Assembly: GCA_025812035.1 (NCBI GenBank)
Contig: GCA_025812035.1_4719.1
Reading direction: 5' to 3' (one strand)
DNA from: a phage
DNA length: 64,000 nt
This document shows positions 3,392 through 14,618 of the stretch, piece by piece. Under the pieces are notes generated by a model. It was not told the origin of the DNA. It saw nothing but the letters and a program-made list of their open reading frames with translations, and did not search any database. The translations under genes were made by a program, and so were the position numbers. Numbering within the stretch: position 1 is the stretch's first letter; every line of letters begins with the position of its first letter.

Positions 3392-6004
3392 TTATGCGTC
3401 CGGCGTAAAATCAAAAGGAACGTCCGTACGAATGATATCATAGCGTTTTCCTAAGAAATAGAACTCCTCGGGGACCTGACCGGGAACAATACTATCGCCG
3501 ATGAACTGCGGATATGCCCAGATGTACTGAGTGAGTCCTTCGAACATATCCAGGTTATTTGCGTGGTTACCCATGATACGTTTCCAAAGTTCGCGTTTAT
3601 ACGGTGTTTTAACATCGAACCCATAAAGCGGTGCAAGATCCACACCAGGCACAAATCCCAGGTAGTAGTGGATCTGACTGACCGGGAAACCAAGCGTATC
3701 TCGCGGAATGGTGATCGCTTGCTCAGCCTTGGTGACATGCGTCTCAATAATCCAGTCGTAGCACTCCGAATAGAACCGATCGAATTTCTCTGGATTATAC
3801 CACGCTTTGGGAAGATTCAATTTCTCCGTAAAATCGTTCGACATGATCGTCGGCAAGAAAGGAAGTATGCCCGTCTTTATTTGCGTGTATTTTGATTTTA
3901 CGCGATTTACCAGATTCCAACAAGCATAACCGAGCTGATCGTTACAGAACTCAACGTACAGATCGTAATCCCCTCCCGATAATGGATTATTAATATCACC
4001 GATATCAGCTGCGTATTTGTTGGGGTATCGTGTATTAAATGCCAGTTTGGTTTGGTAATCGTAAATGCACGGTTTATTGTTCTTCGTGTTAATCCACCAC
4101 CATGGCTCACCTACCTGCACGCAAATGTCCTGGACATGAGGATAGATAATATCAGCAAATGCTGTTAACACATCCCCTAACCACGCCATCGCATGTTGGT
4201 TACATGGAGACAACAACCAAGACGGTGGCGTATATCCGGTTGCTGCTATGTTTCCTTCCCAATCCTGCTGCGCCCACTCGAATGGACACGCTGTACTCAT
4301 CAATTCGTAACTTAAACTGATGGTGACAGAGAAATGGTGTTTTGCGGCGTATGCAGCAAAGGCTTCATGCCATGCAATACAGGGTGGATTTAGTACATCT
4401 GTGGTGTTCACCAGTAACTTACCCGCACTTGGTGTCCAGACAGTATCGTAGAAATGCGACATTCCGACATAGTGCACTAATTCATCCTGATAACCCGCAT
4501 ACACCAGGTTTTCAAATACACGCTCTGGCGTGATGTTGTAATGGTCATCATAAGCGGTTATTGCACGAAGCTCATGCGGTGTGCAACGGTGACGATTAAC
4601 CGTCATTTCCTGGTACACCCCATCGATAGGAAGAATCTCGATGGTTAAACCAAGATCGATCGGCGTTTCCAGATAGGTCGTTTCTGTAGCACCTTCTTTA
4701 TAATGTCGAGAACTCATGCTGAACATCAACGATGTTACCGATTCAAGTTCGATGGGTTCGTCAGCATAGAACCCCGCCATCGCATCGTTGAAATCGATCG
4801 TCACGGTCGCACTCGTACCGTCTTTAGAAACGTCGGTTGCATATCGGGTTAATGAGATATACTGGCGACTATCGTCTTTGTGAACGACGGTTAAAACCGG
4901 TGGGTTTTCAGTATCAGCAAAATTACGCTGGTCGCCAGTAAACGTGATCTTCGCTTTAAAGATCAAACCGAATAACGACGTCATGGGGGCATACGCAACG
5001 CAACCATGATCCAGTGTATCCGTTGTTCGCCATTCTATCCCGACCAACCCGTTAGCGGTATGACATCGCATATACGCGTTAAGTACCATGTCTTCACTGA
5101 CAACCGCGAAGTTCTCTGTTGACTGACCGTTGATAATCCAATACATCGGTTGCCAAAGATTACGAGTACCTTTTGCATAGCGGTAGGTTGGCGCGCCTTT
5201 TGGGTTGCCGTTATTAAGATGGAATACAGCAGTACCTTGGTAGTGATCGTTCGTATTAATCGGAACGCTGTAAGCGTCACCGATATCCGTACGTTCGACC
5301 TTAGCGACTGTTGCGTTTTCAAACAGTCCACGTAGCGTAGGAAGACCAATATCTTCAGGCGCGTTTTCTCGACGAATCGCATCCGCGATGCGATGGGCTA
5401 AGGCGGGGTAAATGACTTCACCTTGTTGCAGGTTCGCAAGCCCTGCGAAACGATCGGGGTCGATGCCAGCAATCAATAACTCGACATCACCCTTCGTTCT
5501 ATCGTCGCGGAGGTATTTCAGTCCAGTAAGATCGAGATGTCGAATTAACGACAACAGATCGTACTTACGGTTTTCAACAGTCAGTTCGAGATCACCTGCC
5601 CAAACCAAACTTCCCTCATCCGCCGCTACTCTAACGGATTGTCGGCCTGTGGTAGATGTTGTTGTCGTTTTATTTAATTGCTCTTGTAGGAAGTCGGTTG
5701 CGAGGTCAAAGGCAACGCCGTAACGGTCAGCGACGGCTTGCATGATTTCACGTAACTGGGTATCTTCTTCAATGATAATCTTGACAGGTATTCCCAAGAA
5801 CGCTTTAGTGAGGTCCCGCTTAACCATCGAGACGAATACGGATTTGTAATACCGGCTTCCATCTTTCCCTTTAAAAAGAATGGAAGTTGTTTCGGGTGAC
5901 GATAGAACACGTGCAAATTCAACATCGTCGAATGTAAGAGAAAGTCCGTTTTTCTCGTTGGTTAATCTTAATATTTCATTTTGCGCGGTTTCATGTAACT
6001 TCAT
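3392..6004 (-). CDS. tail fibre/spike protein, member of shared-N-domain family
   Basis: 870 codons; N-terminal ~170 aa (NEILRLTNEKN...FDDVEF...YKSVFVSMVKRDLTKAFLGIPVKII...YGVAFDLATDFLQEQLNK) is homologous to the N-termini of ORFs at 12028-12555, 12712-14466 and 51773-53227; large unique C-terminal domain. Confidence 0.6.
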   Translation of the reverse strand: MKLHETAQNEILRLTNEKNGLSLTFDDVEFARVLSSPETTSILFKGKDGSRYYKSVFVSMVKRDLTKAFLGIPVKIIIEEDTQLREIMQAVADRYGVAFDLATDFLQEQLNKTTTTSTTGRQSVRVAADEGSLVWAGDLELTVENRKYDLLSLIRHLDLTGLKYLRDDRTKGDVELLIAGIDPDRFAGLANLQQGEVIYPALAHRIADAIRRENAPEDIGLPTLRGLFENATVAKVERTDIGDAYSVPINTNDHYQGTAVFHLNNGNPKGAPTYRYAKGTRNLWQPMYWIINGQSTENFAVVSEDMVLNAYMRCHTANGLVGIEWRTTDTLDHGCVAYAPMTSLFGLIFKAKITFTGDQRNFADTENPPVLTVVHKDDSRQYISLTRYATDVSKDGTSATVTIDFNDAMAGFYADEPIELESVTSLMFSMSSRHYKEGATETTYLETPIDLGLTIEILPIDGVYQEMTVNRHRCTPHELRAITAYDDHYNITPERVFENLVYAGYQDELVHYVGMSHFYDTVWTPSAGKLLVNTTDVLNPPCIAWHEAFAAYAAKHHFSVTISLSYELMSTACPFEWAQQDWEGNIAATGYTPPSWLLSPCNQHAMAWLGDVLTAFADIIYPHVQDICVQVGEPWWWINTKNNKPCIYDYQTKLAFNTRYPNKYAADIGDINNPLSGGDYDLYVEFCNDQLGYACWNLVNRVKSKYTQIKTGILPFLPTIMSNDFTEKLNLPKAWYNPEKFDRFYSECYDWIIETHVTKAEQAITIPRDTLGFPVSQIHYYLGFVPGVDLAPLYGFDVKTPYKRELWKRIMGNHANNLDMFEGLTQYIWAYPQFIGDSIVPGQVPEEFYFLGKRYDIIRTDVPFDFTPDA

Positions 6005-6026: not shown

Positions 6027-6668
6027 TTAGATGTACTGCTTACCGCCCACGAAGGAAGTCAGCCAGTTCCCTGAAACAAGCTGCGATACCCAACCGGGTA
6101 CCGCTCTACCATTCTGGCTCATGATGTTACCACACCAACCAGGGAATCCGGGACGGATATAATAGAAAGTTAAATTGTAGAGATGGCAATTCCACACCGC
6201 AACGTTATGTTTACCAGAAACCGCTTTAAAGACAAACGCAACGGGTAAAGGCGACGATAGCAATTCGGTCACAGGGACGGCTGACCAATTCGCATTCGCG
6301 TTCCACGGTTGCCAGGTATGGCTACGCGAGTCGCAAAATACGTTACCGTTGTTACCGCGCCCACCCGCATTCCACCACAGCGACGGACTCATGTTCTTAA
6401 GTGAGGTAAATTGCTGCGGTGGAATATTAGGAATAATAACAGGGTTGGTACCTTGCCCATGTTTCTTTTCTTTTGCGTTCACATACCCGCTTATCGATTC
6501 GAGGTATTTGACACCAGGATAATTGTTCTGGACTTGTGTCGCAATATCACGAACATCAAACGTCCAGCAGATCATGGTGTTGTAGTAAGCATCGGTGTTG
6601 TCGTACCATGCGTTACCATCTTGTAAACGTGCGCCACTATTCGGTGTTTTATCTGTGTTTATAGCCAT
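6027..6668 (-). CDS. hypothetical protein, paralog sharing C-terminal domain with 6780-7496
   Basis: 213 codons; C-terminal RPGFPGWCGNIMSQNGRAVPGWVSQLVSGNWLTSFVGGKQY is near-identical to the C-terminus of the next gene. Confidence 0.5.
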   Translation of the reverse strand: MAINTDKTPNSGARLQDGNAWYDNTDAYYNTMICWTFDVRDIATQVQNNYPGVKYLESISGYVNAKEKKHGQGTNPVIIPNIPPQQFTSLKNMSPSLWWNAGGRGNNGNVFCDSRSHTWQPWNANANWSAVPVTELLSSPLPVAFVFKAVSGKHNVAVWNCHLYNLTFYYIRPGFPGWCGNIMSQNGRAVPGWVSQLVSGNWLTSFVGGKQYI

Positions 6669-6769
6669 GGTATTGTCCTATACGTTGACGGTTGAGATGT
6701 CGGATGCCGGATGTGTGTTGTCATCCGGTGGTACGTACAGAAACACCCACAGATAAAACAGTAGCTTCT

Positions 6770-6794
6770 CTAACTTCAATTAAATTGAAGTTAG
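6770..6794. repeat. perfect 12-bp inverted repeat with 1-nt spacer (CTAACTTCAATT-A-AATTGAAGTTAG) centred on the stop codon of gene 6780-7496
   Basis: read directly from sequence; AT-rich palindrome straddling a gene end. Confidence 0.4.
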
Positions 6795-7496
6795 ATATTG
6801 TTTACCTCCAACAAACGACGTTAACCAATTACCTGAAACAAGTTGCGATGCCCAGCCAGGCACTGCCCTACCGTTCTGGCTCATCACGTTACCTGCCCAT
6901 CCCGGAAAACCCGGCCGGAAAATATATACTTGAATATGTGTTAAAGCGTTATCATTACCACCGCCAACAGCAACGTTACGACTCCCAGATGACGGGAAAT
7001 ATTCTTTTAAGAACAGAGGATCGGTTGCTAATAAAGATGCGGGCCAAGGGTTCGCGGATGCATCAACATCGAATTCGGTCCATCGCCATTTACGTCCCGT
7101 GTCGAACCATGTCGATGTACCGCCTCCACGCACTGCAAGATTGCGTGCGTCGCGGGCATTGTAAATTGATTCGATGTTACGCCACCCACCTTTTGCGGCG
7201 TTTGCCGCATAGCAAATCGCATTACCACCATTCTTCTTTTCGTAAACAGTTCGTTTGATATGAACACGATCGATGAACGCTTCACCGTATTTGTTGACGA
7301 GCGTTTGTGCGATATCACGAAGATCGTGCATGTGAAAAGCGATGTCTTCGTTATGGAACCATGTTGTCGGGTTCCAGACGGTACCGTTTGGTTCGGCACA
7401 CATCGATCGGATATTGTTGCGTTGATTAACCGCGATAAAACCCATTGTATACCTCGTTCCTATTCTCAAAAAGGAAATTTCATACGATGACGCCAT
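6780..7496 (-). CDS. hypothetical protein, paralog sharing C-terminal domain with 6027-6668
   Basis: start revised to ATG at 7496 (MASSYEISF...), 5 nt downstream of the GGAGGAG arm of the hairpin at 7501-7530; the ORF-track start at 7532 lies inside that hairpin. Confidence 0.5.
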   Translation of the reverse strand: MASSYEISFLRIGTRYTMGFIAVNQRNNIRSMCAEPNGTVWNPTTWFHNEDIAFHMHDLRDIAQTLVNKYGEAFIDRVHIKRTVYEKKNGGNAICYAANAAKGGWRNIESIYNARDARNLAVRGGGTSTWFDTGRKWRWTEFDVDASANPWPASLLATDPLFLKEYFPSSGSRNVAVGGGNDNALTHIQVYIFRPGFPGWAGNVMSQNGRAVPGWASQLVSGNWLTSFVGGKQYLTSI

Positions 7497-7500
7497 AGCA

Positions 7501-7530
7501 GCTCCTCCTTCCCTTACGGGTTGGAGGAGC
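7501..7530 (-). promoter_or_regulatory. GC-rich stem-loop, repeat copy 2; its 3' arm GGAGGAG lies 5 nt upstream of the ATG at 7496
   Basis: 28-nt core identical to the 2368 and 41224 copies; in the transcript the hairpin 3' arm overlaps the Shine-Dalgarno position. Confidence 0.45.
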
Positions 7531-7538
7531 ATACTTAA

Positions 7539-8045
7539 TTACTCGCTGATAACCTCAACGGAATTGGGATCAGCGATCATCGCACGGTCAGTAGAACAAT
7601 TGAAGAAGACCATGCCGACACCATCGCCGTTCGAGTTCAGGGTTGAACTTACGTAAGACAGGGTTGGTTTATTCATGCGGTAGAAGCGTTCGCTGGTAGC
7701 GGTATTGAACCCCAGATCAACGTAGTCTTTCACCGTGGTATACAGCTGCGTGGATTCGAAGACGGTTACCGGAGAGTCAACGGTAAATTGACTACCTTCA
7801 TCCACAACCAGAACCTTATCGTTCCAGATTTCAGTGGTTGAAAACTTCGGTTTCCAATGTTCGAATTCCTGGGTTGCACCCCAGCAAGAATACACAGCAA
7901 GATTGCTGTTCTTCTCAACAGGTTTCAAACCCACCAGTTGTGTCAGGTCTTTATCCAGGTTCGGTAAGCCTTCCAGCGTAGCACACCCGCCCAGAGAAAG
8001 CACCATCAACATACCAAGAACGATCGCGCAAAGTTTCTTCATCAT
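7539..8045 (-). CDS. putative lipoprotein
   Basis: N-terminal MMKKLCAIVLGMLMVLSLGGC gives a signal peptide plus lipobox-like LGGC. Confidence 0.5.
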   Translation of the reverse strand: MMKKLCAIVLGMLMVLSLGGCATLEGLPNLDKDLTQLVGLKPVEKNSNLAVYSCWGATQEFEHWKPKFSTTEIWNDKVLVVDEGSQFTVDSPVTVFESTQLYTTVKDYVDLGFNTATSERFYRMNKPTLSYVSSTLNSNGDGVGMVFFNCSTDRAMIADPNSVEVISE

Positions 8046-8086: not shown

Positions 8087-8503
8087 TTACATAGCAGCAG
8101 GAAATTCCGGCCAATCGATATTTGGTGCAGCATCGGTATCGACAGCCGTCACGGCATCGATGTAATCCAAAACAGCATTAAGTTGAGTCGTTTCTTCCGG
8201 AGTCAGTTTTCGCCCAGCCCGTAATTTTAACTGAATAAGATCGATGGAAGCCAGCGCTGAATCAATCTTTGATTGTTTTATCTGTTCTGCCTCGGCGACG
8301 AGATCTTCGTGCTGCCGCTCGGGTTCAGGAGGCGCGATAAACTCGCCATCCGAGTATAACCAACCTATTCCAGGTGACACAGTTACCGCATCGCTAATAC
8401 TAACCAACTGTTGATTGTCGGATATATTGAGCTCTGCCTCACCATCGTAAACGATCGTGTTTACTACTACCCCATTTTCAATAACAGCGTATGATGTACT
8501 CAT
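8087..8503 (-). CDS. tail fibre assembly chaperone (Tfa-like)
   Basis: start revised to ATG at 8503, overlapping the fibre gene stop (TAATG); C-terminal AVLDYIDAVTAVDTDAAPNIDWPEFP resembles the conserved tail of Tfa chaperones; lies immediately downstream of the fibre gene. Confidence 0.6.
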   Translation of the reverse strand: MSTSYAVIENGVVVNTIVYDGEAELNISDNQQLVSISDAVTVSPGIGWLYSDGEFIAPPEPERQHEDLVAEAEQIKQSKIDSALASIDLIQLKLRAGRKLTPEETTQLNAVLDYIDAVTAVDTDAAPNIDWPEFPAAM

Positions 8504-11500
8504 TACATAAACTCCTCGATGATGCAAATCCCATTAGCACCACGCCCACCAGGCTTAGCGCTTCCTGAGAAAGAGTTGTCGTAAGCACCACCACCACCCG
8601 AACCAGGCGCGAGGCCGTTGTGGGCGGTGCCAACACCGGCGCGACCGCCACCGCCCCAATATGACGCACCCCCACACCCACCGACAGTAATAGTACCGGC
8701 TTGTCCGTCGCCACCGTCTCCGCCCGGAATGCGTATATCCCCGGTATTAGGTACGCCCCCATAGCCACCACCAGTGTTTGTGATAGTTGTTTTTCCTGCG
8801 CCTTGCCCGCCGGGAGCGGTTAGCAGGGATGCAAATTTACTATCCCCACCCCCGTTTCCAGATGTTGCTCCAGAGCCGCCGGAACCACCAGAACCAATTA
8901 CAACAGAATAACTAGTAGCTGATATCGTTATAACCGAAATTACTGTTCCACCGGCCCCACCGCCAGCACCAAAAAACGTTTCACCGTTGGAAAAAGCCTG
9001 GCAACCACCGCCACCGCCTCCACCACCGGTTATTGTTACTCTAATCCGTTTTGTTCCTTGTGTTGGGGTGTACGTCCCTGACGATGTGAAAACACGCATG
9101 TTCAGTAAACGTCCGACATATCCGCTAGAATCGGCTAAACCAAGATCTTTAGCTGCTAACGTGATATTAGCTGTACCGTCAAACGGTTTACCGTTAATCG
9201 TGCGCGCAGTCTGCAACTTCGTCGCCGTTGCTGCGTTTCCTGATGTATTCTGGTTTCCCGCGGCGTTAACACCCGGCAGATTGATGTTCGCACTACCGTC
9301 GAAAGACACCCCACCAATGGTGCGAGCTGTTTTCAGTTTTGTCGCCGTGGCAGCATTACCGGTCGTGTCTTGGTTACCGGTGGTGTTTACCCCAGGCAGG
9401 TTGATATTTGCCGTTCCGTTAAATGAAACACCACCAATCGTCCTTGCCGTTTGCAACTTCGTTGCGGATGCCGCATTCCCCGTGGTGTTTTGGTTACCCG
9501 TTGCATTCACGCCCGGGATACTATCCTTAGATGTGTAGATCTGTGCCCATTCCGACCAGTTCGAATCGGTTGCATCACGACGTGAACGTAGGTAAGCTGG
9601 AGCGTGTGCGCCCGCGGTACCTGACCACCCAATAAAGATCTCGCCTTCACCGACCGATGAAGCGCCTTTAAGATGAATGACGTTACCATAAGCGGTAGGA
9701 TATCCGTTATTGTACGCTTCATACATCTGGATGCCCGCATTGCTGCCCTGAGCTGTGTTAGCTAAAGCCGTAACACGACCTTTGGAGGCGAGAGCGGTAA
9801 TACTGAAGCTAATGTCCTTAGTACCGTCAAAGGCGACCCCATTAATCTTCCGTGCTGTTTGGAGTTTCGTGGCAGTAGCCGCATTACCAGAGGTACTCTG
9901 ATTACCTGCTTTGTTCACGCCTGGTAAATCAATGTTGGCTGTTCCATCAAAGGACACGCCCCCTATGGTTCTCGCCGTCTGAAGTTTTGTTGCTGAGCCA
10001 GCGTTTCCGGAAGTGCTTTGATTACCTGCCGCGTTGACACCCGGTAGGTTAATGCTAGCAGAACCATCAAAAGAAACTCCACCTATCGTGATCGGTGTTT
10101 TCAATTTCGTGGCTGTCGCGGCGTTACCCGTCGTATTCTGATTACCGGCTGCATTGACGCCAGGTAATGCGATATCGGCCGTACCGTCGAACGCGACACC
10201 ACCGATTTTACGGGCGGTTTGTAGCTTGGTCGCTGTAGCCGCGTTACCGCTGGTATTTTGCGTGCCCGCTTTATTTACACCGGGAAGATCGATGTTGGCA
10301 GAACCATCGAATCTGACGCCACCTATCGTTCTTGCAGTAGCAAGTTTAGCTGCTGTGGCTGCATTATTGCCCACTTTTAGCCAATCATCCCATGGACCAT
10401 CCTGGCCGTTCCACGACGCCGTTAAACCACGTACGTAAATATTGCCTGTACGTACAGTGTACCGTTGCATCCCACCGAATTGTCCGGCTGGGAGTACTTC
10501 AAGGTAACCTGCGGCATTTGCTTCAGGGAAATTGTGGGCGGCGTCCGCGTTCGTCGCTATTGGTTTAGACCAAATACCCACAGACGCTTCAACCGGACCG
10601 TAGGTATTCAGATTTGCGTCAGCAGGGAGTGGTCCTCGGAAACGCAGTAATTGTATTGGCGTTAACCCCAACGTTCTTTGCATTCCCTCGACACTCGATT
10701 GCGATAAAAGTGCCCGAGCTGTCGACGTGATGGTCGCTAAAGCAACCTTGTCGACTCCAGTGAAATAAGGGAATTTGTTCGCTGATGTCGCTAAACCTGA
10801 AAAGGCGGTCAGTAATGCATTAAGGGGTTGCTTCCCAGCTAACGCTTTCGTTACTGTCGTTGAGAAATTAGGATCACTTCCTATAGCTCGAGCCAGCTTA
10901 TTAAGCGTATTTAGCGCATCTGGAGACGAGTCAATCAACGACGTGATCGCACGCATCACAAATTCCGTGTTGGCAATCTGTCGACTGCTATTGTTAATTG
11001 CTGCGGTGGGTGTTGTTGGAGTACCGGTGAATACAGGACTATTAAGATCCGCCTTGAGAGCAATGAGGCGTTTAAGTGCTTCGACATCGACTTTCAGGTT
11101 TTCCCACCCGATGAGAGAACCGTCTCCGTTGGTATGATAACGGTTATACCAGAAGTCGCCGTTAACACCCCAAAAGAATATACCTTTCTCTTCGTTTTGC
11201 GGGCCGGAACTATTTCGCGATGAGCCGATATATTTGATTTCAATAAGACCCTCAAACACGACTCCCGGGATTATTTTGTTGTCTCCAGCTGACTGTACTA
11301 CTTGATAAACTCCAGGCGTTGCTGCTCTAACCCATGTTAAGAATTCCGTTATTCCAGCGGTGCCACTGAAACGCTTAACGTCGGTAAGTATCGCCCCATA
11401 ACCGAACATACCCGGTAACGCAACTCGTCCGCCGGTACGGTCACGAATATTTGAGGCAACGACGGGCAGCTTTTTACGAACGCTGTTAACCGCCTTAGGT

Positions 11501-12021
11501 GTGGCTGCTTTTGTCTCGTCATCGCTATCGATGGCGTTGCTCAGGATGGTCAGTCCTCGCTTATCTATGGTTGCGTCGGGAAGAAACGCGTTATCCAACA
11601 CTTTAAGCTGTACAGCGCTCGTGTTACTAACAACGAGATACATCTGGCAGTTAAGAACGCTGCTTGCGCCTTCAGTAGGAACAGGCTTGTATCTTTCCGG
11701 TGCGCTGCAGACAGCGACCAGAACACCTCGATCGTCATACAAGCCGATTTCGCGTACCCAGAATCCACCTTGGTTTACAGGAATAATACCCTCAACAATA
11801 ATCCTGGTTGTGTCGTCTGCGTCAACGCGGATGTTAGAAACTTCCCCGCGATAAACTTCGTGTACAAGGGCTGTTTGACTAGCATCGGGAGTTGGTGTAG
11901 AGCCGTTACCGTCACCAACGGCAAAATGTGTAATTTTTAGTTTCTCGCCGTCCGGAAGTAGTGCGGCGGCGATACGTTCAGTACCTTTATCGGTAATGAC
12001 CGTTCTATATGTTGTACTCAT
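8503..12021 (-). CDS. long tail fibre protein (P2 gpH-like N-terminus, fibre repeats, Gly-rich tip)
   Basis: 1172 codons; N-terminus MSTTYRTVITDKGTERIAAALLPDGEKLKITHFAVGDGNG...ALVHEVYR matches the P2 H/lambda-type fibre N-domain; two arrays of a ~40-aa repeat (GNAATATKLQTARTIGGVSFDG.ANI.LPGVN); Gly-rich C-terminal region. Confidence 0.85.
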   Translation of the reverse strand: MSTTYRTVITDKGTERIAAALLPDGEKLKITHFAVGDGNGSTPTPDASQTALVHEVYRGEVSNIRVDADDTTRIIVEGIIPVNQGGFWVREIGLYDDRGVLVAVCSAPERYKPVPTEGASSVLNCQMYLVVSNTSAVQLKVLDNAFLPDATIDKRGLTILSNAIDSDDETKAATPKAVNSVRKKLPVVASNIRDRTGGRVALPGMFGYGAILTDVKRFSGTAGITEFLTWVRAATPGVYQVVQSAGDNKIIPGVVFEGLIEIKYIGSSRNSSGPQNEEKGIFFWGVNGDFWYNRYHTNGDGSLIGWENLKVDVEALKRLIALKADLNSPVFTGTPTTPTAAINNSSRQIANTEFVMRAITSLIDSSPDALNTLNKLARAIGSDPNFSTTVTKALAGKQPLNALLTAFSGLATSANKFPYFTGVDKVALATITSTARALLSQSSVEGMQRTLGLTPIQLLRFRGPLPADANLNTYGPVEASVGIWSKPIATNADAAHNFPEANAAGYLEVLPAGQFGGMQRYTVRTGNIYVRGLTASWNGQDGPWDDWLKVGNNAATAAKLATARTIGGVRFDGSANIDLPGVNKAGTQNTSGNAATATKLQTARKIGGVAFDGTADIALPGVNAAGNQNTTGNAATATKLKTPITIGGVSFDGSASINLPGVNAAGNQSTSGNAGSATKLQTARTIGGVSFDGTANIDLPGVNKAGNQSTSGNAATATKLQTARKINGVAFDGTKDISFSITALASKGRVTALANTAQGSNAGIQMYEAYNNGYPTAYGNVIHLKGASSVGEGEIFIGWSGTAGAHAPAYLRSRRDATDSNWSEWAQIYTSKDSIPGVNATGNQNTTGNAASATKLQTARTIGGVSFNGTANINLPGVNTTGNQDTTGNAATATKLKTARTIGGVSFDGSANINLPGVNAAGNQNTSGNAATATKLQTARTINGKPFDGTANITLAAKDLGLADSSGYVGRLLNMRVFTSSGTYTPTQGTKRIRVTITGGGGGGGGCQAFSNGETFFGAGGGAGGTVISVITISATSYSVVIGSGGSGGSGATSGNGGGDSKFASLLTAPGGQGAGKTTITNTGGGYGGVPNTGDIRIPGGDGGDGQAGTITVGGCGGASYWGGGGRAGVGTAHNGLAPGSGGGGAYDNSFSGSAKPGGRGANGICIIEEFM
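9157..9516 (-). repeat. in-frame tandem repeat array (3 units, ~120 bp each) inside the tail fibre gene
   Basis: protein residues ~836-955 repeat the motif PGVN..GNQ.T.GNAA.ATKL.TARTIGGVSF.G.ANI. Confidence 0.7.
9787..10371 (-). repeat. in-frame tandem repeat array (~5 units, ~120 bp each) inside the tail fibre gene
   Basis: protein residues ~551-745 carry the same ~40-aa fibre repeat. Confidence 0.7.
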
Positions 12022-12027
12022 GGCGTT

Positions 12028-12555
12028 TTATCCCGGGTAAATAGTGATGGTGTCACCAACGAGGGTTGTGGCACCAGAGTAAAGATACGCTGGTGATGCT
12101 TCACGTTGGTTAGTCACGGTAAGATTCATTTGCCCACGCCAAACCATGGAGGTATTCGCGATGGGAATCAAGATCTTCTTGGAAGTATCGTCACGAAAAT
12201 TAATGGTGGTAGCAAGGGTAGCTGAATCAAAATCAACGTCAGGTTCAAAGATGAACCCGTATTGATCTGAAATAGCTTGAATGACCGCTCTTATAGTTGT
12301 TGTTTCAACCGACTCCAAAACGATTTTTATCGGTATTCCTAGAAACGCTTTCGCGATATCACGTCGTGTGTAAGTAATAAAACTCTCACCACACCACCTT
12401 GTTCCTTCATTTGCTGTGACGATCACTTTTGCCCTGTTAGCACCAGAACTCCCATCCAGGGTTAAAGTGAGATCGGAGTTACTGAATACGCTACTGTTAC
12501 GTTGGTTTATCAACGCAATCAGTTCGTCCTTCCACGGCGGGTAAAGTGAACGCAT
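12028..12555 (-). CDS. fibre-family N-terminal domain protein (short paralog)
   Basis: start revised to ATG at 12555, preceded by GGAGGAGGG; 175 aa aligning only to the shared N-domain of the fibre paralogs (WKDELIALINQRN...YTRRDIAKAFLGIPIKIV...YGFIFEPDVDF). Confidence 0.5.
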   Translation of the reverse strand: MRSLYPPWKDELIALINQRNSSVFSNSDLTLTLDGSSGANRAKVIVTANEGTRWCGESFITYTRRDIAKAFLGIPIKIVLESVETTTIRAVIQAISDQYGFIFEPDVDFDSATLATTINFRDDTSKKILIPIANTSMVWRGQMNLTVTNQREASPAYLYSGATTLVGDTITIYPG

Positions 12556-12669
12556 AAGCGCACCCTCCTCCAACAATCAATTAAAATGCAAAACACCTCG
12601 AAACCAGAGTGCGATTCGAAGCAAGCGTAAACGGCCTGAACGACCGCATAAAATTCCGCGCATATTACC

Positions 12670-12711: not shown

Positions 12712-14466
12712 TTATGCTGCTACGTATCCAGGCCAACGTTCTCTTGGCCAGTTTGTTGCACCCTGTCCGACGGTGTCTTTACCAGAAATGACGTTACTTA
12801 CATCCCATCCACTCAGATCCTGATTGAATGCGGTGTTCTCGCGCATCATGAGATCGATCTTACGTAGTGAGTGGGTATTCCAACCAGATATGTCTTGGTT
12901 GAATGCTTTATTGTAGGCAAACATGTTAGACACGTTCTGTAATTTTGACGTGTTCCAACCACTGATGTCGCTATTGAACGACGTGCTTGAGAACATGCTG
13001 CTCGCATCAACAAGATTGTCGGTTTTCCAATTAACCACTTTATCGCCGTCAAATGCATTGCTGCTGCTGAACATAAAACTCATATTGCTAGCTTTGGACA
13101 CATCCCATTTATCTAACCCTTTACCGACGAACTCATTACATGCCGAGAACATCCAGCTCATATCGGTAACCCGACTCACGTTCCATTTGCTGAAGTCAAG
13201 GTTAAGTTTCTGACACCCTAAGAAGGTCTTATACATGTTGGTGATGCGACTAACATCCCACTCTTGGATGTTAGGGTCGTTAAGCGTCGTTAAGTAGTTG
13301 AACAATGTCGCTAACGACGTCCATTTCTCTGGAATCCGGTTTGGTACCGTACGAAGCGATGCAAGGTTGTTGGTTGACGGAGAGCAGAACATACCGTTAT
13401 CCCAATTTACGATTTCCGTAATTTTGGACCCTTTGATCGTCTGAGTGGTATTACCATCTTTCACTATACCCGTAGCAACGATGGTATATTCACCGGTGCC
13501 TGCATAATCGTGGGCGTAGGCACCGTTACTTGAGGTCTCCGTTACTTTATTCCCATCACCCCAATCGATATTAACTTTATCCCACCCACTTAGGTTGAAC
13601 TGTACTTTGCCTCCGGTAGCTTTTAGGATGTATTTACCTCCATTGTCGGTAAAATAGCAGACAACCATTGAACCGTACAGATTACCTATCCGCCAATCAT
13701 CCTTTTCTGTCACTGCGATTTGCGCTAAGCCACGCTGTACGAAGAGTACTGTGCGGTTCTCGTCAGTCTGTAATGTGGCTAATGCTTGGGCCTTATCGTC
13801 CTCGCTAATTTCATTAGCGCTCACTAAAACGCTTAACATTCTTTCGAAGTATTCGATGGGTAATTGACGTCCTACAGACTTATCAACCGACGGTTCAGCA
13901 AGATCGCCCAACGCTGCAGTGGTGGCCAGCATCAACGAACCCTTGGTCATATCTGTTTCTTGTAGGTAGTGCAGTCCTGTAATCTGGTACGCTTGAATAA
14001 TCGTAATCAGGTTCAGCGTATCGTTAACGACCTGTACTTGTAAATGTCCAGACCATACGTAGCTGCTTTCGGCAATTGGTAGTTCGACCGACTGGATACC
14101 TGATGTTTCAAAGGTGATCTTCTTGTTAAGATCGGTTTCCAGGAAATCAACAGCGAGGTCAAAATTTATACCGTACTTCTCAGCGATAGAATCCACGATG
14201 TTTCTGAAAGCAACGTCATTATTTACGATGAAACGTAATGGGATTCCTGCAAACGCTCTAGCAATGTCTCGACGAACATACGTGAGCGACTGCTCGAAGA
14301 AATAGGGGCTACCATCTCGCGGTTTAATGGTCACCTGACATACTTCGGGATATTCAGCTGGGATTAACGACACGAATTCAACATCGGATTCTTTCAATGA
14401 AAGCATATTCTTCCGGTTTACTAATGCCAGAAGATCGGCTTTCCAACCAGGATAAACTGTAGACAT
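12712..14466 (-). CDS. tail fibre-like protein with PKD-like segment and DUF285-type repeats
   Basis: start revised to ATG at 14466 (GGAGTG upstream; MSTVYPGWKADLLALVN aligns with paralog N-termini); IDWGDGNKVT...YAHDYAGTGEYTI is PKD-like; C-terminal repeats of type FNQDISGWNTS..M..MF are DUF285/BspA-like. Confidence 0.6.
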   Translation of the reverse strand: MSTVYPGWKADLLALVNRKNMLSLKESDVEFVSLIPAEYPEVCQVTIKPRDGSPYFFEQSLTYVRRDIARAFAGIPLRFIVNNDVAFRNIVDSIAEKYGINFDLAVDFLETDLNKKITFETSGIQSVELPIAESSYVWSGHLQVQVVNDTLNLITIIQAYQITGLHYLQETDMTKGSLMLATTAALGDLAEPSVDKSVGRQLPIEYFERMLSVLVSANEISEDDKAQALATLQTDENRTVLFVQRGLAQIAVTEKDDWRIGNLYGSMVVCYFTDNGGKYILKATGGKVQFNLSGWDKVNIDWGDGNKVTETSSNGAYAHDYAGTGEYTIVATGIVKDGNTTQTIKGSKITEIVNWDNGMFCSPSTNNLASLRTVPNRIPEKWTSLATLFNYLTTLNDPNIQEWDVSRITNMYKTFLGCQKLNLDFSKWNVSRVTDMSWMFSACNEFVGKGLDKWDVSKASNMSFMFSSSNAFDGDKVVNWKTDNLVDASSMFSSTSFNSDISGWNTSKLQNVSNMFAYNKAFNQDISGWNTHSLRKIDLMMRENTAFNQDLSGWDVSNVISGKDTVGQGATNWPRERWPGYVAA

Positions 14467-14618
14467 AAGCACTCCAATCATGGGGCGGTAACCGCACCCA
14501 ACGGTTAAATTGTCGATTATGGTCGTTGCTGATAAGACGACCATAACCAACGATGTTTAATATGTAGTATATTGATATCATGACGTTATGGGGATCTAAG
14601 TCATACCATGGAGACGGC

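Follow-up and report, generated by a model that had tools for sequence, protein, structure and literature searches.

A conserved anchor joined to a variable binding domain is a well-known logic in the receptor-binding proteins of phages. In gp38 of phage S16, a three-helix bundle inserts three conserved tryptophan residues into three equivalent pockets at the tip of trimeric gp37 (PMC6851490, PMC12032242). The gp38 of T4 is a chaperone rather than an adhesin (PMC12032242, PMC6851490). In T2, gp37 ends in a Peptidase_S74 domain and the gp38 gene comes next. Here we analyse a 64,000-nucleotide stretch of phage DNA (GenBank assembly GCA_025812035.1, contig GCA_025812035.1_4719.1; hereafter the window), to which Escherichia phage vB_EcoM_Goslar is ~91% identical at the nucleotide level. 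Goslar is a nucleus-forming jumbo phage (chimallivirus) and the Escherichia coli model for such phages. Two adjacent open reading frames (ORFs) on the minus strand of the window, ORF A (6027-6668) and ORF B (6780-7445), encode small proteins composed of an N-terminal head and a highly conserved C-terminal tail. We favour, with moderate confidence, the reading that both are accessory adhesin-like caps, in which a head resembling a carbohydrate-binding module (CBM) would be turned to the host and a tail resembling the gp38 N-terminal domain (gp38_N) would be plugged on a trimeric fibre.

ORF A and ORF B are paralogs over their full length: aligned over ~200 residues, they are 39% identical (BLASTP E 2e-34). 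The original prediction, made from the letters of the DNA, had placed two ORFs here, at 6027-6668 and 6780-7496. Both are present, on the minus strand, the first with 213 amino acids and the second spanning 6780-7496/7532. Their C-termini had been called near-identical, and indeed 38 of the last 41 aligned residues agree, in the pattern RPGFPGW(C/A)GN(I/V)MSQNGRAVPGW(V/A)SQLVSGNWLTSFVGGKQY. Low complexity, which had been named as the explanation that would undo this relationship, is excluded, the tail comprising 17 residue types with an entropy of 3.8 bits. The N-termini had been described as unrelated, and this did not hold: without the tail, the heads still align over 142 residues with 26% identity (E 4e-6), head identity being 21-26%, and in all family members the head keeps an invariant tryptophan, a D-x-R-x-x-A motif and a lysine. 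At the level of predicted structure, ORF B as modelled by AlphaFold2 (AF2) and Goslar gp087 as modelled in BFVD superpose with an E of 1.4e-18 and a template modelling (TM) score of 0.77-0.80. ORF A, the ortholog of Goslar gp087 (95.8% amino acid identity to Goslar_00087), occupies what we call the A slot, that of the conserved paralog. It is divided into a head (6156-6668, minus strand, residues 1-171), predicted to be a β-jelly roll and homologous to the head of ORF B, and a conserved tail (6030-6155, R172-I213). ORF B (221 amino acids) occupies the B slot, that of the variable paralog, with a replaceable head (6918-7445, minus strand, residues 1-176) and a conserved tail (6783-6917, R177-I221). 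The tail contains three conserved tryptophans, each after a glycine (P-G-W, P-G-W and G-N-W). In the numbering of ORF B, W183 and W198 are found in at least 90% of the members and W207 is invariant; in ORF A the three are W178, W193 and W202.

The second ORF is open from 7532 and has in-frame ATG codons at 7496 and 7445. Its start had been put at 7496; we prefer ATG 7445 (MGFIAVNQ..., 221 amino acids), which is most likely the true start for four reasons: the orthologs P0001 and P0002 begin there, locus L006 has no upstream ATG, Goslar carries an in-frame TAG between the two ATGs, and a hairpin at 7501-7530 accounts for the purine-rich AAGGAGGAG before 7496, which forms its 3′ arm.

What keeps the two tails so similar? 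Nonsynonymous divergence (dN) between ORF A and ORF B amounts to 0.06 for the tail against 1.05 for the head; across the family, the tail has a mean identity of 0.61 and the head one of 0.28. A relationship at the nucleotide level had been held to be a necessary check, and one exists: 131 nucleotides are 75% identical (6034-6164 versus 6796-6926), which is the level of identity that protein conservation would give. As for recent gene conversion at the 3′ ends, which was also to be looked for, none is seen in the window, where synonymous sites are saturated. Among the 38 identical residues of the tails, 24 are encoded by different codons, and independent draws from the phage's own codon usage would give 22.6 ± 2.7 (P 0.38); the longest identical nucleotide run between the two tails is 11 nucleotides. 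The duplication is thus an old one, and the constancy of the tail is owed to purifying selection instead of recent gene conversion. Selection against nucleotide identity of the tandem tails was also considered, and the excess behind it (a proportion of synonymous differences, pS, of 0.92) vanishes given codon usage (24 versus 22.6). Short conversion tracts do occur in other genomes. The tail of Goslar ORF A has a B-like tract at codons 17-23, and a 372-bp contig of an E. coli assembly (L020, positions 1-186; GCA_025336745.1) has a 51-nucleotide B-like tract at codons 6-22, which is identical to window ORF B at 49 of the 51 positions and to window ORF A at 39. In these tracts, C is replaced by A, I by V and V by A.

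The head of the B slot is exchanged between related phages, and the breakpoints coincide exactly with the start codon on one side and the first tail codon on the other. The window and locus L004 are 94% identical in nucleotide sequence as far as the ATG of ORF B; identity returns, at 90%, with the first tail codon, and no DNA similarity is detectable over the intervening 526 nucleotides that encode the head. Tail DNA clusters by slot and not by head type (0.86-0.91 among A-slot tails, 0.88-0.90 among B-slot tails, 0.68-0.80 between A and B). The Goslar-like loci thus differ in what the two slots hold. The window and L005 have head type B1 in the B slot and an A gene in the A slot; L004 has B2 and an A gene with a TGA at codon 98; in Goslar and nine metagenomic contigs, the B slot is deleted and the A gene is present; and L006 has B1′ in the B slot, the A slot being absent together with the fibre, fibre assembly (Tfa) and gp86 genes. 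At least one intact copy is retained at all 14 of the 14 Goslar-like loci examined. The A copy of L004 (L004:2441-3085) starts with GTG, has the in-frame TGA in place of Trp98 and is otherwise 91% identical in nucleotide sequence to window ORF A. Recent pseudogenisation could account for this, as could a sequencing polymorphism.

Goslar lacks a counterpart of ORF B, and only 28 bp there correspond to window positions 6721-7441. The intergenic region of Goslar (L001:12770-12946) still encodes MAIARTIGFTS, the first 11 codons of a B-slot gene that is not of the B1 type, and the same gene is intact in L004 as P0004. Goslar therefore lost its B copy, through a 666-bp deletion at a short CACGC microhomology. 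In P0018, a second and independent B2 deletion has kept 78 codons and ends at nearly the same place, in the hairpin of the spacer between the two genes. Since both deletions end in or beside this hairpin (CCGGATG...CATCCGG), the comparison suggests that it is a deletion hot spot.

The head is modelled as a β-jelly roll that can be superposed on known CBMs. It falls outside the curated CBM families, with no match in Pfam or NCBIfam and none among PDB sequences, and a structure search of BFVD returned matches limited to the family's own members. The idea that a docking tail carries swappable functional domains needs to be divided: the docking part gains support from the gp38_N match described below and the exchange of heads is observed, whereas the notion of unrelated domains fails, there being one homologous jelly-roll head that has diverged.

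The tail is the sole segment predicted with low confidence by AF2: its predicted local distance difference test (pLDDT) score is ~52 for ORF B and, for the long PCH45-type form, 39-50. The model shows short helices just after tail residues W183 and W198 (pLDDT ~50). That the most conserved segment is poorly predicted fits folding on a partner. A search of 5.8 billion proteins with a profile of the tail alone found the complete 42-residue tail to be confined to this family (including P0020, a fragment of an A-slot gene). The other matches are small gp38_N-type proteins carrying the core motif alone. Two of these, P0021 and P0022, have database-wide E values of 3e-3 and 6e-3 with 15 of 24 identities, and share with the tail the pattern GW-A-x-N-x-M-S-x-x-G-x-A-V-P-G-W-A-S-x-L. 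P0022, whose gene overlaps the end of a Peptidase_S74 (S74) fibre gene, is a homolog of the N-terminal domain of T-even gp38 adhesins: tblastn matches it to 382 phage records, T2 gp38 among them, and Pfam Gp38_N matches it weakly.

A direct comparison of profiles by hhalign leads to the same domain. The tail matches gp38 N-terminal domains, Aeromonas-type sequences included, with a probability of 96.5% (E 8e-10, score 44.7), and T-even gp38 only with 83% (E 9e-6, score 28). The full-length family profile matches gp38_N with 95% (E 3.7e-8, score 50.9), the match being confined to the tail. Column-shuffled controls gave a mean score of 9.6 (standard deviation 2.4, maximum 19.5; n=150 each), and reversed alignments gave ~7. 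The gp38_N alignment in turn finds S16 gp38 in the PDB (6f45_D, E 1.6e-7). The first and second tryptophans of the tail align without gaps to W22 and W37 of gp38, which in the S16 protein belong to the conserved tryptophans seated in pockets of the trimeric gp37 tip (PMC6851490, PMC12032242). A circular permutation, by which the third tail tryptophan would correspond to the first gp38 helix, was tried and was not significant. The tail is gp38_N-like and not a demonstrated member of the Gp38_N family. Proteins of the gp38_N type were also met outside the family. The T-even relatives Edwardsiella phage PEi20 (L024:229-1398) and Serratia phage CHI14 (L025:901-1989) each have two gp38 genes in tandem with a common Gp38_N domain and a different remainder, a known arrangement to which ORF A and ORF B form a parallel. 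Small proteins with a gp38_N-like N-terminus are encoded by genes overlapping the ends of S74 fibre genes (L026:2501-2983 in Aeromonas phage phiA008, where it is unannotated in the record, and L021:861-1055), and one such protein occurs in a 65-kb phage that is clearly not T-even-like. From these matches, the gp38-type attachment module seems more widespread than the Pfam family implies.

How is the family distributed? An exhaustive profile search of 1.84 billion representative proteins gave 12 clusters and a word-indexed search of 5.8 billion proteins gave 11, and all members come from jumbo-phage-like contigs, Goslar, Serratia phage PCH45 or Salmonella phage SPLA10. Neither ORF A nor ORF B has a match in scans of Pfam, PHROGs, NCBIfam or PADLOC, and the family profile has none among PDB sequences. 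Searched over all six frames of the 64-kb window, a hidden Markov model of the tail found ORF A and ORF B only, which rules out the tail as a docking module common to other window proteins. In SPLA10, PCH45, L007 and L009, the family gene lies directly after a fibre gene ending in Peptidase_S74, and in L005 it follows an S74 fibre gene and then the gene for a lipoprotein-like protein. The PCH45 gene is found at 65,596-66,708 (QFP93093.1). Members of the PCH45, P0010 and P0015 types have differing extra domains after the conserved motif.

Some evidence is also available from the virion. In Table S4 of the Goslar virion study, label-free quantification mass spectrometry (MS) of CsCl-purified virions gives gp087 at ~19 copies per virion (range 13-30), on the basis of 4 peptides covering 28.6% of the protein (bioRxiv 10.64898/2026.04.21.720040). 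The tail fibre gp090 is estimated at ~43 copies, the Tfa gp089 at ~52, gp086 at ~4.5 and the lipoprotein-like gp088, among the most abundant unmodelled proteins, at ~737 (10.64898/2026.04.21.720040). The ratio of gp087 to gp090, ~19:43, is loosely compatible with 1:3, both figures being MS estimates. For gp088, either a true virion component or co-purified membrane material could hold. In the cryo-electron microscopy map of Goslar, neither the fibres nor the ring of the peripheral baseplate was amenable to modelling (10.64898/2026.04.21.720040), which fits the absence of a fibre-associated protein from the atomic model. In that paper gp087 is a line of the supplementary table, and no receptor-binding protein is named beyond domain predictions (10.64898/2026.04.21.720040).

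The mechanism that we propose is as follows. The head (~175 residues), a fast-evolving β-jelly roll exchanged between phages, probably contacts a glycan on the host surface. The tail (42 residues) probably docks the protein on a trimeric fibre of the tail or of the peripheral baseplate, in the manner of the N-terminal three-tryptophan domain of T2/S16-type gp38 at the gp37 tip, with the difference that the module is C-terminal here. Having a common tail, the two paralogs would use the same docking sites, in competition or side by side, and the virion would gain two specificities. The data above establish that the two genes are paralogs, how selection acts on head and tail, where the cassette begins and ends, which fold is predicted, that the tail profile resembles gp38_N, that the family gene is syntenic with fibre genes and, from the literature, that the ORF A ortholog is detected in purified virions; docking, the identity of the partner, glycan binding and the role in host range are inferred.

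Several observations weigh against this proposal. The link to gp38 consists of a profile-profile comparison over 20-25 columns together with intermediate sequences, and the third tail tryptophan has no aligned counterpart in gp38. Pfam Gp38_N (PF21721) matches none of 16 tail sequences at E 10, nor ORF A or ORF B at E 0.1, while T2 gp38, the positive control, scores 61.7 bits; compared with PDB sequences, the tail profile gives chance matches only and does not find 6f45. ORF A and ORF B have the attachment-like module at the C-terminus and PCH45-type proteins have it internally, in neither case at the N-terminus, and SPLA10-type members have lost two of the three tail tryptophans. With regard to the head, the matches given by Foldseek in the PDB are weak (E > 1e-3) and those of a generic jelly roll, a fold that is very widespread. 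The gene context is not uniform either. No Peptidase_S74 domain was found in the 64 kb of the window, whose own fibre has a glycine-rich end and a Tfa, so that an S74-type fibre elsewhere in the window was dropped as a candidate docking partner. The member at L010 (P0014) lies among nucleotide-metabolism genes, and L006 keeps ORF B at a locus that is devoid of fibre, Tfa and gp86. Finally, the Goslar preparation in which gp087 was detected also contained thymidylate synthase at ~20 copies, chimallin and PhuZ (10.64898/2026.04.21.720040); with such non-structural proteins in the same preparation, the detection of gp087 is supportive, not decisive.

Which other functions could explain these data? 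First, the proteins may be assembly factors, whose gp38-like tail binds the fibre tip transiently and aids its folding or trimerisation as T4 gp38 does, with no function in the virion. Synteny and tail similarity fit this too, the T4 protein, a chaperone and not an adhesin (PMC12032242, PMC6851490), is a precedent, the gp38 homologs of PEi20 and CHI14 are annotated as assembly catalysts, and detection in a virion preparation could be carry-over. We nevertheless hold it to be decidedly unlikely, given that a dedicated Tfa is already encoded, that a fast-diversifying, cassette-swapped CBM-like head is expected of a host-facing part and not of a chaperone, and that gp087 is present at ~19 copies in CsCl-purified virions.

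Second, and to be given the same low credence, the tail may be an element of oligomerisation or self-folding, like a foldon, the lectin-like oligomers joining the virion otherwise, for example through the DUF7941 filament cloud or gp088. A short, highly conserved C-terminal segment with low pLDDT in the monomer could behave in this way, identical paralog tails would permit mixed oligomers, and DUF7941 proteins assemble by docking a disordered linker on a neighbouring subunit (10.64898/2026.04.21.720040). In all Goslar-like loci, L006 included, the gene for the lipoprotein-like protein is the one immediately upstream of the A/B slot. However, no homolog of this gene was found in the fetched loci of more distant lineages, which keep the tail, and this speaks against a family-wide linkage; the tail has no similarity to DUF7941; and its specific profile match is a known fibre-attachment domain.

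Third, ORF A and ORF B may be non-structural "moron" genes whose products act inside the infected cell and whose position in the fibre module, at a variable hot spot, is incidental, the virion detection being contamination. The locus is indeed a hot spot of deletions, replacements and hairpins, P0014 has its place among nucleotide-metabolism genes, contaminants were seen at comparable MS abundance and the jelly-roll fold is generic. Against these points, adjacency to fibre genes is conserved in five lineages, the tail is similar to gp38_N, no defence-related model was matched and every Goslar-like genome examined has at least one intact copy, and we rate this explanation slightly lower again than the two before it. 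Last, that the near-identical tails are a mere product of recent gene conversion between tandem duplicates, with no function needed, is exceedingly improbable, for in spite of the short tracts in Goslar and L020 it is refuted for the window pair by the differing codons, the 11-nucleotide longest run and the pS of 0.92, and the tail is also conserved in distant single-copy lineages.

The 111-bp spacer between ORF B and ORF A (6669-6779, minus strand) had been said to contain two palindromes, and it does involve two: a hairpin with 7-bp arms at 6707-6728 (CCGGATG-8-CATCCGG) and a perfect 13+13 palindrome at 6769-6795, which has no strand of its own, overlaps the stop codon of ORF B and is the source of its additional residues LTSI. 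The palindrome is missing from L004, and in L005 a mutation in its loop abolishes the stop codon. The RNA of 6620-6810 is predicted to fold with -62.8 kcal/mol (z -7.0). In this fold, the 5′ part of the spacer (6748-6760) pairs over a perfect 13 nucleotides with 6645-6657 (ORF A codons 4-8), and further spacer pairing covers the Shine-Dalgarno sequence of ORF A. The pairing between spacer and ORF A is kept in L005 and has one mismatch in L004. Such a fold could repress translation of ORF A unless ribosomes arriving from ORF B unfold the RNA.

A change of TAA to AAA in the loop of the palindrome (equivalent to window 6780-6782) has abolished the stop codon of ORF B in many relatives; the protein P0001 stands for 135 member sequences, and L005:5224-5991 is an example of the stop loss. 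The extended ORF B crosses the whole spacer to a TAG that overlaps the Shine-Dalgarno sequence of ORF A, giving a 255-amino-acid product. To judge from the sequence, this read-through arrangement is a classic translational-coupling layout. Another hairpin follows the lipoprotein-like gene, at 7501-7530 (GCTCCTCC...GGAGGAGC; no strand assigned), and its 3′ arm has the look of a Shine-Dalgarno sequence placed ahead of ATG 7496. Its central 14 nucleotides, AACCCGTAAGGGAA, are exactly inverted in L005 as TTCCCTTACGGGTT (L005:5112-5245), and L006 has an unrelated hairpin at the same place.

A bolder proposal may be put on top of the cap reading, one that we regard as speculative and, taken as a whole, unlikely. 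The three-tryptophan "trimer cap" of gp38 would be a portable docking peptide that can be used at either end of a protein and has spread beyond the T-even phages, reaching jumbo phages that form a nucleus. Two alternative lectin-like caps, equipped with one kind of plug, would compete for the same fibre tips in Goslar-like phages, and the spacer, sequestering the ribosome-binding site of ORF A and read through from ORF B in many relatives, would set their ratio. A single genotype could then produce virions of mixed or switchable host specificity.

The neighbouring genes, all on the minus strand, make up a fibre module. Before ORF B in the direction of transcription lie the genes for the lipoprotein-like protein (7539-8045, 168 amino acids, with a signal peptide and an LGGC lipobox; phrog_9559, without a Pfam match; ortholog of Goslar gp088), the Caudo_TAP tail fibre assembly protein (8087-8503, Pfam PF02413, E 1.4e-20; Goslar_00089) and the tail fibre (8503-12021, 1172 amino acids, with repeat units and a glycine-rich C-terminal region; Goslar_00090). 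The fibre at the equivalent position of L011 also has 1172 amino acids and matches Phage_tail_fib, Phage_fiber_2 and Gly_rich_2. Fibre length varies in close relatives (1009 amino acids in L005, 1086-1292 in L011-L016 and L019, and 1324 in Goslar), and the internal repeat units match one another between phages at 64-85%. The L005 fibre has a Peptidase_S74 end and no Tfa in place of the glycine-rich C-terminus and Tfa (L005:1546-4575). After ORF A, the original prediction had a fibre paralog; the gene at 3392-6004 in fact encodes an 870-amino-acid protein with Pfam matches to DUF7941 and NCTSP_N and a TIM barrel, which is no paralog of the 1172-amino-acid fibre. Its Goslar ortholog is gp86, which has been characterised as one of the DUF7941 filament proteins (10.64898/2026.04.21.720040). 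The DUF7941 N-domain (PF25613) occurs in three window proteins (3392-6004, 12028-12576 and 12712-14550), the last being a 612-amino-acid protein on the minus strand that combines DUF7941 with DUF285 (BspA-like repeat). Positions 12724-14595 have no nucleotide counterpart in Goslar, where gp92-gp93 occupy the position; this is a second cassette replacement, in a host-recognition module.

If the cap reading is true, an unannotated family receives a concrete and testable role, that of a modular adhesin with a gp38_N-related plug and an exchanged head. It would offer a handle to predict and engineer the host range of jumbo phages through head swaps, point to the fibre that carries the cap, and broaden what is known of the range and topology of attachment by gp38. 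What is new here is the unannotated family itself, the gp38-like plug lying C-terminal to a jelly-roll head, its occurrence in chimalliviruses and the exact cassette boundaries.

Among known systems, the gp38 adhesin (T2/T6/S16 type; Gp38_N PF21721 plus GP38 PF05268; PDB 6F45) is one of the closest. Both are small proteins encoded downstream of a fibre gene, with a short conserved attachment module that has (P)G-W motifs and two tryptophans in register. The rest of the protein is variable, and in gp38 it is mosaic and determines specificity. Tandem paralogs with a common attachment module are found in PEi20 and CHI14 as well, and T2-type gp37 has a C-terminal Peptidase_S74 like the fibres that precede the family gene in four lineages. 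The differences are that the module is N-terminal in gp38 and C-terminal or, in long forms, internal in this family; that ~25 residues can be aligned and the Pfam model misses the family tail; that gp38 is built of a β-helix and a polyglycine (polyglycine II, PGII) sandwich, whereas the head of ORF A and ORF B, which have no match to GP38, is a CBM-like jelly roll; and that ORF A and ORF B are carried by nucleus-forming jumbo phages.

The DUF7941 "fibre cloud" proteins of Goslar (gp22, gp23, gp86 and gp91-93; bioRxiv 10.64898/2026.04.21.720040) share the gene neighbourhood, the combination of a conserved docking part with variable carbohydrate-binding or leucine-rich repeat parts, and a poorly ordered segment that docks on a partner. 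In contrast to them, ORF A and ORF B have no DUF7941 (PF25613) domain, their conserved part is C-terminal and gp38_N-related, and gp087 is present at ~19 copies against hundreds to thousands. Proteins of the Caudo_TAP type (lambda Tfa, Mu U, P2 G) are likewise small, encoded after the fibre gene and able to bind the fibre tip, some of them staying on the virion; ORF A and ORF B differ in having no Caudo_TAP (PF02413) match, and the genuine Tfa is encoded two genes upstream. Lactococcal siphophages also carry extra CBM-fold parts on the adsorption apparatus, as in Tuc2009 BppA and the CBM insertions of "evolved" Dit proteins, and these accessory parts are dispensable in some relatives and widen or strengthen glycan binding. 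The anchoring mode and the type of phage differ there and a sequence relationship is not expected.

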